Source: Bacilli bacterium (lineage in GTDB: Bacteria > Bacillota_I > Bacilli_A > RF39 > UBA660). Taken from it: a DNA stretch of 64,000 nt. The translations under genes and the position numbers were made by a program. The stretch is taken from assembly GCA_016283075.1 (NCBI GenBank), contig JAEEMF010000026.1, positions 5,270-69,269 on the forward strand. The letters are read 5' to 3'. Below the pieces are notes generated by a model. That model searched no databases, was not told where the DNA came from, and saw only the letters and a program-made list of their open reading frames with translations. This document shows positions 43,236-46,941 of this stretch, one piece after another. The stretch's first letter is position 1. Every line of letters starts with the position of its first letter.

Positions 43236-44195
43236 ATGCTTGTTGATGAATTTAAAAACAATATTAGCCTTTTGAAAGAAGAATATATTAAAAGCAGATT
43301 TAGGATTGAGGCTTTATATTTTTTGATTACAAATTACTATATCGAGGAAACTGGAGGAAGTGAAGTTCTGGTTAGATTTGATGACATTAGTGTTATAGAG
43401 AATTATTTATATAAACAGAAAGAGTTTATTTATTTTGTTTTTCAGTTTTTGAGTAATATAAGTAAATCTATTCCTACGTCTGAAAGTTTATTCCAAATTA
43501 AAGAAGGGATGTCATTTCCGCCTTTGAATGATGTTTTTCCTTATTATTTTGATAGCCTAATTATACAATTTTCTTCAATTATTGAACTGAATCAAAAAAA
43601 TCAATTAGAGCATTATTTAAATAACGGTAATTCTTTTCATTTTTATCCTGATAGGAATCAATTTGGGCTATGGTGGGAAATATACATGTTAAGAAATAGA
43701 ATGGTTCATTTTACAGAAAGTAGATATTCAGAACAATCTAAAATTTGTTCTTGTTATGAAACGTTCAGTTCTAAGTGTAATATGATTAAAATTGATAATC
43801 ATAATCACATTTTTTTTGCTAGTACTTTAATTGACATATATAAAAGTGAATACATTAAATCGAAGATTGAAGAAGCAATTTTGTCCAAAGAGAGAATTAA
43901 TCCATTTGATTTATTATTCCCATTAAAGTCTCCGAAGGGTTACGGTAAAAATCAACCTATAGTATTGCATTTAAGCGATGATATTTATTTTGATTATGCG
44001 TCTTCTGGAGTACGTTTATTAAATGAAATTAATACTTTTTTGAATAAAATAAATAATATTCTTTTTGCTCATATATATAGCCGATTGAAAAATAAAAAAA
44101 ATATAACTAATGTTAATATAGTTTTATATATTGATGGCGAAAAATTGACTATGAAGGTAGATGAATTATTTACTAATTGGAGAGAAAAGAAATAA
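43236..44195 (+). CDS. Hypothetical protein with Rx4H (HEPN-like) motif 'RNRMVH'; possible Abi/defence-type protein
   Basis: 319-aa ORF in an accessory patch. 'YMLRNRMVHFTES' fits the R-x4-6-H HEPN signature. Otherwise no match recognised. Confidence 0.4.
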   Translation: MLVDEFKNNISLLKEEYIKSRFRIEALYFLITNYYIEETGGSEVLVRFDDISVIENYLYKQKEFIYFVFQFLSNISKSIPTSESLFQIKEGMSFPPLNDVFPYYFDSLIIQFSSIIELNQKNQLEHYLNNGNSFHFYPDRNQFGLWWEIYMLRNRMVHFTESRYSEQSKICSCYETFSSKCNMIKIDNHNHIFFASTLIDIYKSEYIKSKIEEAILSKERINPFDLLFPLKSPKGYGKNQPIVLHLSDDIYFDYASSGVRLLNEINTFLNKINNILFAHIYSRLKNKKNITNVNIVLYIDGEKLTMKVDELFTNWREKK

Positions 44196-44332
44196 AGAAT
44201 AAATATCTATAACAGCTAACCCTTCTCTGAAGAGAGTAAAAGATTGCTCTATTTTTAATTGCTTTTTGATATATAAAGGTTTGTTGGATTTAAATGCTAT
44301 TATTAGGGAACATTTTAGGTACAAATATATTT

Positions 44333-44372
44333 AAACAGGATACATATTGTTATGTATCCTGTTTTATTTTTT
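44333..44372. terminator. Bidirectional hairpin terminator between convergent genes
   Basis: AACAGGATACATA-ttgt-TATGTATCCTGTT (13-bp stem), flanked by TTATTTTTT on the + side. Confidence 0.6.
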
Positions 44373-45335
44373 CCCAAACTTTATTCCATATAAGGTATAT
44401 GAACTAAACTGGTTATTAAATGTTATATCTATTTGATTGTTATTAGTAGGGATGATAACCCATGATTTTGCTACTCCGCATGAACCACCTGCATTGTTAC
44501 CTATATCACCTGATAGATAGTAATTAGCATTTGTTATAGATGATATATTTAGGTATTCATGTAATGTGCTATAGTATCCGGTAGGAGTTCTACTAATATA
44601 TGCGGTTAATATATAGAAACTATAATCACTTTCAGGAGAGAAGGATGTTTGATTTGCATTTCCTTCTTTTTTAATAAGTGTCTCTTCTTTTGGTTTTAAA
44701 TAGTTATTATTATGTGATTTGATATAGGAAAGTGCTTCTGAAACATTATTAACGTTCCAAGATGAATCTAGTGGAGTATATCCTAAGTCTTCACTTACTG
44801 GAGTATAAGTTTCACTTCCTAGTGATACTCCGTATACTCCTATACCATCTAGATCTCCAACTACTTTAATGGTGATAGGATCATCTGTTTTAGGAATAAT
44901 AATATATGATCTCCCTGCTCCAGAAGAACCATTACTACTATTATTAGATGAAGTTCCTACCTCATAATAATCAAATGTATCATTTATATATGATTCATCT
45001 ATTGCTGTTCTTTCTAGGTTCATAGATTCATATCCTGTACCACCACTAAAACGAAGTATTGTTGCTATATAAAAGTCATAATTACTACTAGGAGTAAATG
45101 TTACTGAACTAATACTATATGGATATTGAGAAGGCCCTATATTGTTTACCGATGTTATATTTCCTACTTTATATTTAAACATATCATAATCTAATATATA
45201 GTCTAATGCATTAGTTATAGAATCACTATTAGTATAACTATAATTAGTACTAGAATAAGAGAATGCATACACAATATCATTTATCAATAATATTGAAATT
45301 ATTGTTAAAAAAAATAATTTCTTTTTCATATACAC
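44364..45335 (-). CDS. Secreted protein (signal peptide) built from two homologous ~140-aa domains (internal tandem duplication)
   Basis: Signal 'MKKKLFFLTIISILLINDIVYA'. Halves align ('DFYIATILRFSGGTGY...GAGRSYIIIPKTDDPITI...YGVSLG' vs 'SFYILTAYISRTPTGY...GVAKSWVIIPTNNNQIDI...YGIKFG'). Confidence 0.55.
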   Translation of the reverse strand: MYMKKKLFFLTIISILLINDIVYAFSYSSTNYSYTNSDSITNALDYILDYDMFKYKVGNITSVNNIGPSQYPYSISSVTFTPSSNYDFYIATILRFSGGTGYESMNLERTAIDESYINDTFDYYEVGTSSNNSSNGSSGAGRSYIIIPKTDDPITIKVVGDLDGIGVYGVSLGSETYTPVSEDLGYTPLDSSWNVNNVSEALSYIKSHNNNYLKPKEETLIKKEGNANQTSFSPESDYSFYILTAYISRTPTGYYSTLHEYLNISSITNANYYLSGDIGNNAGGSCGVAKSWVIIPTNNNQIDITFNNQFSSYTLYGIKFGKK

Positions 45336-45434
45336 CTCCCATTATTCTATCTTTAATTATATATATATATATTAAGTCAAGGAATGTATAACTTTTAATA
45401 TAACTGGAAAATGAGAATAATCTACAATTATATA

Positions 45435-45463
45435 TTGACATATATTAACCTATATGTTAATAT
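45435..45463 (+). promoter_or_regulatory. Promoter (TTGACA-N17-TAATAT) overlapping a palindromic operator ATATTAAC-cta-tat-GTTAATAT
   Basis: Read directly from the sequence, upstream of the toxin/HTH gene pair. The inverted repeat spans 45442-45463. Confidence 0.55.
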
Positions 45464-45565
45464 ATGTATGAAAAGAGGTACTAAAGGACATTAGGTGGAT
45501 AAAAAGGAAAAACGAAAAAGGGATAGAGGAAGGAGAATATTTAGAAGAAAGGAGGAAATAGTTTT

Positions 45566-45892
45566 ATGATTATTTCTGAGACATCTGGGTATAAGAATAG
45601 CTTTGGAAAAATAAAGAAGAATTATGAAGCTAGGGGAAAATTGAATAATGTGCTAAATCATATTGAAAATGTTAATAATTATAATGATTTAAAGAATCAT
45701 CCTATGTCATACATATATGGATTTGAGGAATTAAAAGATGATTTAGCAGGCTTTTGTAGATTTTCCATTGATAAGAACGGTAGAAACGGAAAATTGAGAC
45801 TCATTTTCTCGTATTCTAATGACACTATCCATTTGGAATACATATCTGATGAACATTATACCGATTTTAAAAGATATAAGAGGAAAGTATGA
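45566..45892 (+). CDS. RelE/HigB-like type II toxin (putative)
   Basis: 108 aa, basic. 'GKLRLIFSYSNDTIHLEYISDEH' resembles the RelE/HigB C-terminal strand-turn-His region. Overlaps the downstream HTH gene by 4 nt. Confidence 0.45.
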   Translation: MIISETSGYKNSFGKIKKNYEARGKLNNVLNHIENVNNYNDLKNHPMSYIYGFEELKDDLAGFCRFSIDKNGRNGKLRLIFSYSNDTIHLEYISDEHYTDFKRYKRKV

Positions 45893-46941
45893 AGGTGATT
45901 TATATGACACATGTTAGTTTTGCTGTTGTATTAAAGGATTATTTGAATGAGAACAATATATCAAATAAGGAATTCGCTGCTAGAATAGGAATTACACCAA
46001 AACATTTAATAGATATTTTATCTGGTGAAGTAGAATTATCTACTTCCATTATTCAATCAATTTCTGTAGTTACTAATATTCCAGTTGACTATATTATTAA
46101 ATTTGAAGAAAATCATCGAATGGAAAATGAAATCGAGAAGTTTTTAAACGAAAAAAATATTTCTTTAACGCAATACTTGAATAAGTTTTCATATAGGGAA
46201 TTACTTAAAAATAAATGGATTCAATTTGTTCATGTCGATGATAAGATGACTACATTAATGGATATATTAAAGTATTTAAGAGTTTCAAAACCTGATATTT
46301 TATATAAATTGGATAAAAATATATTATATAAAAGCAAAAATGACAAACCTGAGTTGTTGATGATTTGGTTAGAAAGATGTTATAGAATTGCAAAAGATCA
46401 AAAAGTTGCTGCTTATAATAAGGATAATATTGAATTGATTGTTGATTATATAAATACATGTGCAAAAAATGGTGAATTCAGTGAGAAAGACTTGATTAAA
46501 ACTTTTAATAAATATGGAATAAAATTAGTTATTCAAGAAGATTTGCCTGGTTCTAAAATTCGAGGTGCATTTAAGGTTAATAAAGATACTCCATCTATAT
46601 ATATAACATATAAGCATAAAAGAATAGCAGATATATATTTTGCGTTATTACATGAATTGGCTCATTGTAAGAGTGATTTTAATCAAGCTAAGGCATCAAG
46701 TATGGTTTCATATGATGATGGCAATTGTGAAGATAAAGCTGATAAACAAGCTTTAAATTGGATGGTTGATGATAAGTATTATCAAGATATTATATCGAAA
46801 TCCTTTTATGATATTGATAATGAGAATAAATATCCAAAGTGTTTTATTTTGTATCGATTAGCTTTAGATAAACGAATTGAATTTTCGAATGAATATTATC
46901 AATTATATAATTATGTTATAGATTCCAATGATTTAAAGTGA
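45889..46941 (+). CDS. XRE-family HTH regulator fused to ImmA/IrrE-type zinc metallopeptidase domain (HEXXH 'HELAH')
   Basis: N-terminal HTH ('ISNKEFAARIGITPKHLIDILSGEV'). C-terminal 'YFALLHELAHC', as in COG2856 peptidases. Confidence 0.65.
   Translation: MKVIYMTHVSFAVVLKDYLNENNISNKEFAARIGITPKHLIDILSGEVELSTSIIQSISVVTNIPVDYIIKFEENHRMENEIEKFLNEKNISLTQYLNKFSYRELLKNKWIQFVHVDDKMTTLMDILKYLRVSKPDILYKLDKNILYKSKNDKPELLMIWLERCYRIAKDQKVAAYNKDNIELIVDYINTCAKNGEFSEKDLIKTFNKYGIKLVIQEDLPGSKIRGAFKVNKDTPSIYITYKHKRIADIYFALLHELAHCKSDFNQAKASSMVSYDDGNCEDKADKQALNWMVDDKYYQDIISKSFYDIDNENKYPKCFILYRLALDKRIEFSNEYYQLYNYVIDSNDLK

Follow-up and report, generated by a model that had tools for sequence, protein, structure and literature searches.

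The locus described here (positions 43236–46941) lies in a window of 64,000 nucleotides, the whole stretch of DNA that was analysed, which is low-GC DNA (~27% G+C) from a metagenome-assembled Firmicute, and comprises four open reading frames (ORFs) in the interval between a nitroreductase gene and arcA. An initial annotation had placed four ORFs here, and the ORF listing of the window contains all of them at those positions. ORF1 (43236–44195, + strand, 319 aa) belongs to an unannotated family and is a candidate HEPN-type ribonuclease (RNase); it has a counterpart of 100% identity in assembly GCA_016295205.1 (contig JAEEGJ010003643.1). ORF2 (44364–45335, − strand, 323 aa, or 321 aa if counted from the ATG of the public gene call) encodes a secreted protein. 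ORF3 (45566–45892, + strand, 108 aa, pI 9.1) encodes a basic protein with a predicted RelE/YafQ/YoeB/HigB fold, a candidate ribosome-dependent mRNA endonuclease, and ORF4 (45889–46941, + strand, 350 aa, probably 345 aa from the ATG at 45904) encodes a protein with an XRE-type helix-turn-helix (HTH) domain and a C-terminal HEXXH zincin domain. Upstream of ORF1 is the gene of a GNAT acetyltransferase (42670–43152, + strand, 160 aa; Acetyltransf_3, 4.6e-18), whose stop codon is overlapped by a hairpin followed by a T-run (43141–43169).

Several transcription signals accompany these genes. ORF1 has a promoter-like site of its own (TTGGTA-16-TATGAT, 43185–43216, + strand), found by consensus scan and sequence reading and a consensus match only; TGATATAAT overlaps this candidate promoter and reads as an extended −10 element. 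The convergent ORF1 and ORF2 share a bidirectional intrinsic terminator with a 14-bp stem (44333–44364). ORF3 and ORF4 are bracketed by one promoter and one terminator, namely a sigma-70-type promoter with a TG extension (TTGACA-17-TAATAT, 45435–45463, + strand; a strong match in the consensus scan) and an intrinsic terminator that closes the operon (46975–46996, + strand), with arcA directly after it.

The structure of the interval became apparent from a blastn comparison with a close syntenic relative, L019, whose ORF2 protein is 92% identical to that of the window. The segment containing the HelD and nitroreductase genes (38139–42678) is 94.8% identical to L019; similarity is lost over 42679–44336 (slot A, containing the GNAT gene and ORF1), resumes at 92.2% identity over 44337–45384 (ORF2 with the terminator and its upstream region), is lost again over 45385–46975 (slot B, containing the promoter/operator, ORF3, and ORF4), and returns at 97.7% identity over 46976–52000 (arcA, argF, and the arcC-fusion). 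According to PADLOC profiles, L019 carries in slot A a PDC-S36/PD-T4-1-like gene (3.6e-43 and 4.6e-25) and an Stk2-like kinase gene (2.6e-62), and in slot B the genes for AbiLi (4.5e-96) and AbiLii (5.4e-22). Of the GNAT gene, L019 has just a 220-bp remnant (72% identity, L019 10897–11114), located between the PD-T4-1-like and Stk2-like genes; the gene is thus part of the variable region and not a constant flank. Neither slot shows a GC or compositional anomaly; flanking direct repeats pointing to site-specific insertion were not found, and tRNA and Rfam scans detected no tRNA gene or Rfam family in the region.

The four genes had been read initially as a single islet with a defence or addiction flavour, inserted between housekeeping GNAT/nitroreductase genes and arcA. 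The comparison replaces the single insertion with three independent units, two of them in variable slots, moves the GNAT gene from the flank into slot A, and takes the secreted protein out of the islet, while the defence flavour is backed by the AbiL and Stk2/PD-T4-1-like systems that occupy the same two slots in L019. We regard it as probable, on balance, that the nitroreductase–arcA interval is a defence-gene hotspot with two exchangeable slots around a conserved secreted-protein gene, a judgement passed jointly on this arrangement, the slot B module, and the reading of ORF1 given below. The anti-phage systems at the allelic positions in L019 are the strongest available evidence that the occupants of the window slots are defence cargo, and they speak to position only; it weighs against this explanation that the whole defence association is positional, from neighbourhoods that were sampled without a statistical test. 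As a natural case of a chromosomal defence hotspot the locus is a clean one, with two slots exchangeable independently of each other around a conserved gene and with the AbiL, Stk2, and PD-T4-1-like cassettes as positional controls. The GNAT gene and ORF1 were also considered as a pair, which was rejected, as ORF1 homologues occur without a GNAT gene in most contexts. The window GNAT protein itself gives an odd PADLOC match to AbiEi (1.5e-5, residues 47–149).

The protein encoded between the slots, ORF2, begins with a signal peptide of Sec type and contains a pair of homologous domains, each of ~150 aa; this internal duplication (30% identity over 138 aa, E = 6e-11) agrees with the earlier description of a convergent secreted protein with a duplicated domain. 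Only three homologues were found. No link of ORF2 to either cassette was detectable, and L019 retains the gene despite having other genes on either side of it; ORF2 is a conserved anchor between the slots, outside both cassettes.

In slot B, a perfect 12-bp inverted repeat, ACATATATTAAC-N6-GTTAATATATGT (45438–45467), overlaps the promoter and is a candidate operator for the HTH domain of ORF4; one exact copy is present in the window. The form TTGACATATATTAAC-N6-GTTAATATATGT is conserved in all six of the upstream regions aligned, in which the flanks diverge, so that the promoter with an overlapping palindrome noted earlier upstream of the pair (45435–45463/45438–45467) recurs in six loci. Judged from this alignment, the promoter and its overlapping operator make up a phylogenetic footprint and a candidate operator-like element, by which the autoregulation of ORF3–ORF4 becomes directly testable. 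Between the operator and the ORF3 start is a purine-rich untranslated leader of ~100 nt (45468–45565), the sequence of which varies among the six orthologous loci yet stays A/G-rich and has no Rfam match.

The ORF3–ORF4 pair itself was found in six genomic contexts (the window, L014, L017, L021, L022, and L024) with its order and spacing kept, some of which adjoin genes for a retron-type reverse transcriptase (RT)–protease (2.2e-139) or an AbiO/Nhi-like helicase, or NERD or Mrr-type genes. A conserved third gene was not found, the genes downstream of the pair being different in all six contexts. Slot B reads, on its sequence organization, as a self-contained two-gene toxin–antitoxin-type defence module. 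In L014, a more distant relative (5001–8454), the module (77% nucleotide identity) is directly upstream of a HelD orthologue (73%), and insertions may have landed repeatedly near HelD in this lineage.

The ORF3 structure was modelled with AlphaFold (AF2) from 18 homologues, with a predicted local distance difference test score (pLDDT) of 90.9. In a Foldseek search of the PDB, the model matched YafQ (PDB ID: 4mmj; E = 2.4e-5; target-normalised template modelling score (TM-score), 0.78), together with YoeB, RelE3, HP0894, and HigB, all with a probability of 1.00; 30 RelE-superfamily matches had E <1e-3, and the best of the matches had target-normalised TM-scores of 0.72–0.79, with the ParE-type gyrase poisons ranking lower. 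The beta-alpha-alpha-beta-beta-beta(-alpha) order of the microbial RNase fold is present in the model, to which a short helical segment at residues 39–50 is added in comparison with YoeB, YafQ, HigB, and RelE. Glu54, Arg78, His97, and Tyr98 of ORF3 are invariant or at least 90% conserved. The catalytic residues of YoeB are Glu46, Arg65, His83, and Tyr84; an hhalign comparison with YoeB, whose sequence was verified against 2a6q, paired Glu54 with Glu46 and Arg78 with Arg65 in a weak match (P = 0.0086; probability, 4.7%), and His97 and Tyr98 were paired with His83 and Tyr84 by inspection only. The four ORF3 residues plausibly correspond to those of the YoeB catalytic site, and ORF3 is, on the basis of its model, a candidate RelE/YoeB/YafQ-fold mRNA interferase.

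By fold, the placement of the small protein in the HigB-like/RelE superfamily, proposed earlier, is supported, whereas its sequence similarity is below the Pfam thresholds. Several results weigh against the assignment on this account: ORF3 scores 17.9–19 bits against the gathering score of 27 for Pfam HigB-like_toxin (PF05015), a family matched by only 3 of the 18 ORF3 family members at E up to 1; a profile search with the ORF3 family (alignment A2) found no RelE-type chain among the PDB sequences; and ORF3 matches neither the PADLOC model PD-Lambda-2_A (E up to 1) nor an RmrT model, nor any other PADLOC toxin. The toxin-first gene order is that of higBA, but the partner differs in size, for HigA, YefM, and DinJ are small whereas ORF3 is coupled to a 345-aa HTH-peptidase.

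The N-terminal XRE HTH of ORF4 is detected by HTH_3 (2.8e-9). The protein matches PADLOC PD-Lambda-2_B (2.7e-23) with residues 19–302 on profile positions 68–345 of 402, and the RmrA profiles (7.8e-10, 1.7e-5, and 1.3e-4) with the peptidase half only (residues 168–306). The HELAH motif (His255-Glu-Leu-Ala-His259) is invariant in six orthologues of 59–74% identity. Pfam Peptidase_M78 (PF06114) is reached at 13.1 bits against the gathering score of 22 (E = 0.086), which counts against the peptidase assignment; ORF4 is placed in the ImmA/IrrE family because of its PD-Lambda-2_B and RmrA profile matches. The earlier reading as an XRE-HTH/ImmA zinc-peptidase regulator with HEXXH is borne out by the HTH_3 match, the invariant HELAH, and these profiles. 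The match to PADLOC Lit is weak (1e-3) and is echoed in the orthologues in L021 and L024, which have precomputed weak matches to Peptidase_U49 (Lit protease); these matches hint at a Lit-like proteolytic effector role.

The start of ORF4 is probably at the ATG at 45904, which is preceded by AAGGTGA, because all five orthologous partners begin with MTHVRF or MAHxRF, equivalent to Met6 of ORF4. The orthologous loci have a gap of 5–20 nt between the two genes without overlap. The 4-bp overlap of ORF3 and ORF4, reported initially as a feature of the pair, is thus probably an artefact of choosing the upstream ATG.

Among the known systems, those closest to the module include PD-lambda-2 and RosmerTA. 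PD-lambda-2 of E. coli consists of a HigB-like protein A, an HTH-peptidase B, and a P4-antitoxin-like protein C; unexpectedly, B was toxic and was neutralised by A, and defence also depended on C (Vassallo et al. 2022, PMC9519451). Like this system, slot B has a small HigB/RelE-like gene first, followed by a gene for an Xre-HTH fused to a C-terminal peptidase, and ORF4 corresponds to component B in its PD-Lambda-2_B profile match. ORF3 shares only the fold class with component A, however, and component C has no counterpart either in the window, where the terminator at 46975–46996 is followed by arcA, or in the five other contexts. The hosts are also different, enterobacterial for PD-lambda-2 and a low-GC Firmicute here. 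Because the correspondence to A and C is lacking, we did not file the module as PD-lambda-2.

In RosmerTA, varied toxins are paired with an ImmA-protease antitoxin that often bears an HTH (Ernits et al. 2023, PMC10440598; Millman et al. 2022 preprint). The likeness lies in the two genes with an HTH and ImmA-type Zn-peptidase partner, in the toxin-first order that is common there, and in the toxin-type gene located directly upstream of, and adjacent to, the antitoxin-type gene in all six contexts. Unlike the RosmerTA proteins, ORF4 is matched by RmrA in the peptidase half alone and ORF3 by no RmrT model, and the RosmerTA toxin RmrT of Gordonia phage Kita depolarises the membrane (PMC10440598), whereas ORF3 has a predicted mRNA-interferase fold. 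The association of a HEXXH zincin with an XRE HTH is further shared with ImmR/ImmA of ICEBs1, in which the HTH protein is joined by an ImmA/IrrE-type peptidase (literature comparison in PMC10440598), and with IrrE (Peptidase_M78); by analogy with ImmR/ImmA, ORF4 plausibly uses cleavage-controlled derepression. The differences from ImmR/ImmA and IrrE are that the domains are fused in ORF4 and paired with a RelE-fold gene, that the M78 score is sub-threshold, and that no mobile element surrounds the genes. Taken by profile matches and the ORF3 model, the description that suits slot B best is that of a RosmerTA-like module of two genes, in which ORF4 is a member of the PD-lambda-2B/RmrA family and ORF3 represents a new family of RelE-fold toxins. 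The RosmerTA/PD-lambda-2 class would thereby come to include RelE-fold toxins from uncultured gut Firmicutes, and so small a version of it, with two genes only, could be used to address which of the partners is toxic in that class and what signal the peptidase detects.

The component parts of the slot B mechanism come from the analysis, and the individual steps are inferred. A dimer of ORF4 would bind the inverted repeat overlapping the −35 and −10 elements and repress the operon, and would also keep ORF3 inactive. A phage cue could then act on the peptidase domain or on the stability of ORF4, and the freed ORF3 would cut ribosome-bound mRNA, aborting the infection. The polarity of this scheme is made uncertain by PD-lambda-2, in which the peptidase protein was the toxic one and the HigB-like protein neutralised it (PMC9519451), a point that weighs against ORF3 as the toxin. 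With the polarity reversed as in that system, the ORF4 zincin would be the effector, such as a Lit-like protease directed at a translation factor, and ORF3 a degenerate toxin that restrains or senses ORF4. Such an arrangement is in keeping with the far closer match of ORF4 to PD-Lambda-2_B (2.7e-23) than to RmrA (7.8e-10), and with the weak Lit/Peptidase_U49 matches (PADLOC Lit, 1e-3; U49 in the L021 and L024 orthologues). We nevertheless judge it unlikely, since the peptidase protein of RosmerTA is the antitoxin (PMC10440598) and since ORF3 has conserved candidates for the residues that an active YoeB/YafQ-type RNase should possess (Glu54, Arg78, His97, and Tyr98). The C component, needed for defence in PD-lambda-2, is also not present here.

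A RelE-fold toxin with an HTH partner and an autoregulatory operator is equally the architecture of an ordinary chromosomal addiction or stress toxin–antitoxin module, which would have no phage role and would owe its variable position to its own mobility; to our knowledge, many HigBA-like modules have no demonstrated role in defence. This alternative appears slightly less likely still than reversed polarity, as the allelic position in L019 holds AbiL, as orthologous pairs adjoin retron RT–protease, AbiO/Nhi-like, NERD, and Mrr genes, and as the nearest profiled relatives, PD-lambda-2 and RosmerTA, were discovered as defence systems (PMC9519451, PMC10440598). Finally, the HTH and ImmA/IrrE-type peptidase follow the ICEBs1 ImmR/ImmA logic, and ORF3–ORF4 could be conceived as a regulatory cassette of this type left over from a decayed prophage or integrative conjugative element. 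That origin is highly improbable: an integrase, att repeat, or tRNA was not found nearby, there is no compositional anomaly, and in six unrelated contexts the intact pair has been conserved together with its promoter, the RelE-fold gene being present each time.

The occupant of slot A next to the GNAT gene, the monocistronic ORF1, belongs to a small family: 31 relatives are word-indexed, and clustering at 50% identity yields only 91 clusters out of 1.84 billion representatives, none of which has a name; its genome matches are gut metagenome-assembled genomes (MAGs) labelled uncultured Bacilli, Tenericutes, Clostridiales, and Eubacterium, and no match was found on plasmids by tblastn. Pfam, NCBIfam, PADLOC, and PHROGs did not recognise the family in any of the forms searched (ORF1, 26 close and 40 distant members, and consensus sequences). 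Isolated matches to STAS (0.025), RE_LlaMI, and PtuB concerned a single member each and were treated as noise, and 1xm7, the sole match in a profile search of the PDB sequences, was spurious.

The motif Arg-Asn-Arg-Met-Val-His (RNRMVH) that had been proposed as a putative HEPN motif corresponds to residues 153–158. Arg153, Asn154, Arg155, and His158 are invariant in the 26 close relatives (alignment A1), and Trp147, Arg153, Asn154, and His158 show conservation of at least 90% across 40 relatives that are only 18–32% identical (alignment A3); with such conservation at this distance, RNRMVH is no coincidence. The close relatives have the segment W147...M-L-R153-N-R-x-x-H158 without variation, with the Trp placed 6–7 residues before the Arg. 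In the AF2 model (mean pLDDT, 84.9; predicted TM-score (pTM), 0.88), the motif ends a predicted helix (145–157) followed by coil, and the preceding helix contains E117-L-N-Q-K121 (Ex3K), of which Glu117 is at least 90% conserved in A1 and less so in the distant A3. Some A3 members have partly lost the motif (P0058, LKNKVIN; P0081, FRIVAVH; P0091, LRNPAAH; and also P0117), and copies with such a degraded motif may have been inactivated or repurposed. The tblastn match in L033 has no intact full-length ORF of the family.

HEPN proteins are characterised by Rx4-6H with a polar residue (Asn, Asp, or His) after the Arg, located at the C-terminal end of helix 3, and by a conserved acidic residue upstream in helix 2, often within Ex3[KR] (Anantharaman et al. 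2013, PMC3710099). In ORF1, Rx4H has Asn after the Arg, is located at a helix end, and is accompanied by an upstream acidic Ex3[KR]. We compared three ORF1 query alignments by hhalign with a HepT/DUF86 profile assembled from 77 sequences, and ran six controls (reversed alignments and unrelated families). Residues 103–159 of ORF1 aligned with HepT from helix 2 through RNRxxH (probability, 35–46%; P = 2–4e-4), in a register that matched Asp106, Glu117, and RNRxxH and placed Glu117 on the Glu of the HepT ‘GEA’ motif, whereas the controls gave P of 0.05–0.35 and probabilities of at most 1.1%. An earlier comparison with 7 DUF86 sequences had been weak (probability, 8–14%). With HepT/DUF86 and other HEPN RNases, ORF1 shares the (M/L)RNRxxH at a helix end, an acidic residue ~25–36 positions upstream in the preceding helix, and a Trp before the Arg. 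It differs from HepT in its length of 319 aa, in a long N-terminal helical hairpin, in a beta-rich stretch replacing the position of helix 4, and in having neither an MNT partner nor a match to a HEPN Pfam model or structure.

From these alignments and the model, membership of ORF1 in the HEPN superfamily is likely, and its action as a HEPN-type RNase is plausible but unproven. The part of the earlier HEPN proposal that concerned the motif has stood, RNRMVH being near-invariant, located at a helix end, and aligned by hhalign at P of about 2e-4; the corresponding Foldseek or Pfam match to HEPN was not obtained. Several observations speak against the assignment. The HepT match covers ~45 columns and two helices only, and its probability is below the 75–98% used to define HEPN families; none of 66 family members or consensus sequences matches a HEPN Pfam family; the model has no Foldseek match in the PDB or BFVD (best E, 0.85–0.97); and ~100 beta-rich residues (172–253) follow the motif where canonical HEPN/HepT has helix 4. 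This beta-rich region has invariant motifs of its own (FSS, TLID, NPFD, and KGxGKKxP). A metagenomic protein of 1629 aa (P0139), which has no Pfam domain, contains seven stretches resembling residues 173–214 at the start of the region; pursued as a lead on the beta-rich region, it gave none.

ORF1 homologues are solitary genes. Among 15 loci, four (L007, L026, L033, and L034) have the homologue immediately behind a large serine recombinase gene, and in L027 serine recombinase fragments flank the homologue on both sides. In L003 the homologue directly follows RhuM/PDC-S05 with a 3-nt gap, and in L034 a RhuM relative is ~4 kb upstream; others follow a Bro-N or APH-like kinase gene, and the homologue in L020 adjoins an integrase fragment and is separated by two genes' distance from a GmrSD-like gene with an AlwI restriction-modification pair. 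The idea of a fixed partner was discarded, the immediate neighbours being RhuM, serine recombinase, Bro-N, APH-like kinase, or nothing. The pattern is that of accessory cargo of mobile elements and defence islands. In L003–L006 (4981–5998), the RhuM (PDC-S05) gene is split into ORFs of 98 and 208 aa in several independent assemblies, and may be a pseudogene or subject to a programmed frameshift.

The most economical reading makes ORF1 a single-gene abortive-infection RNase. Glu117 and R153-N-x3-H158 would most likely form a HEPN-type metal-independent RNase centre, the beta-rich C-terminal half would gate the enzyme as a sensor, and the protein would act in abortive infection as a single gene. 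Alternatively, W...LRNRxxH may serve nucleic-acid or partner binding in a protein that is not a HEPN RNase but another accessory factor of mobile elements, for superinfection exclusion, anti-defence, or regulation. This would fit with the lack of a fold or family match anywhere searched, with the hhalign probability of <50% over two helices only, and with the few members without the Arg or Asn (P0058, P0081, and P0091). It is harder to reconcile with three HEPN hallmarks occurring together and in the right order, with hhalign controls that are 100–1000 times worse, and with the defence-rich context, and we consider it rather unlikely. Returning to the abortive-infection RNase, we tentatively propose, somewhat short of probable, that ORF1 founds an unrecognised single-gene abortive-infection family of gut Bacillota, a HEPN-derived RNase with a beta-rich sensor of ~100 residues that takes the place of helix 4 or interrupts this region. 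Its gene would travel at the end of serine-recombinase elements, as their cargo, as well as in defence hotspots, invisible to Pfam, PADLOC, PHROGs, and Foldseek. As such, ORF1 is a candidate for a new HEPN-like family of defence proteins that current libraries lack, the addition of which would improve the annotation of defence islands in gut metagenomes. ORF3–ORF4 and ORF1 are useful catalogue entries rather than a new principle, with little to surprise the specialist; the hotspot with its allelic controls, the footprinted operator, and the unannotated ORF1 family constitute concrete and testable leads.

The conserved segments flanking the interval show two further features. Directly after arcA and argF, an ORF of 792 aa (49323–51701) encodes a carbamate kinase (AA_kinase) domain in one chain with a membrane transporter domain of DcuC type, and the fusion is also conserved in L019. 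Upstream of HelD (39558–40115 and upstream; L001 63–2880) are ORFs of 194, 302, 185, and 185 aa without a Pfam domain, of which the adjacent 185-aa pair, kept in this arrangement in L019, are possible tandem paralogues by equal length alone.

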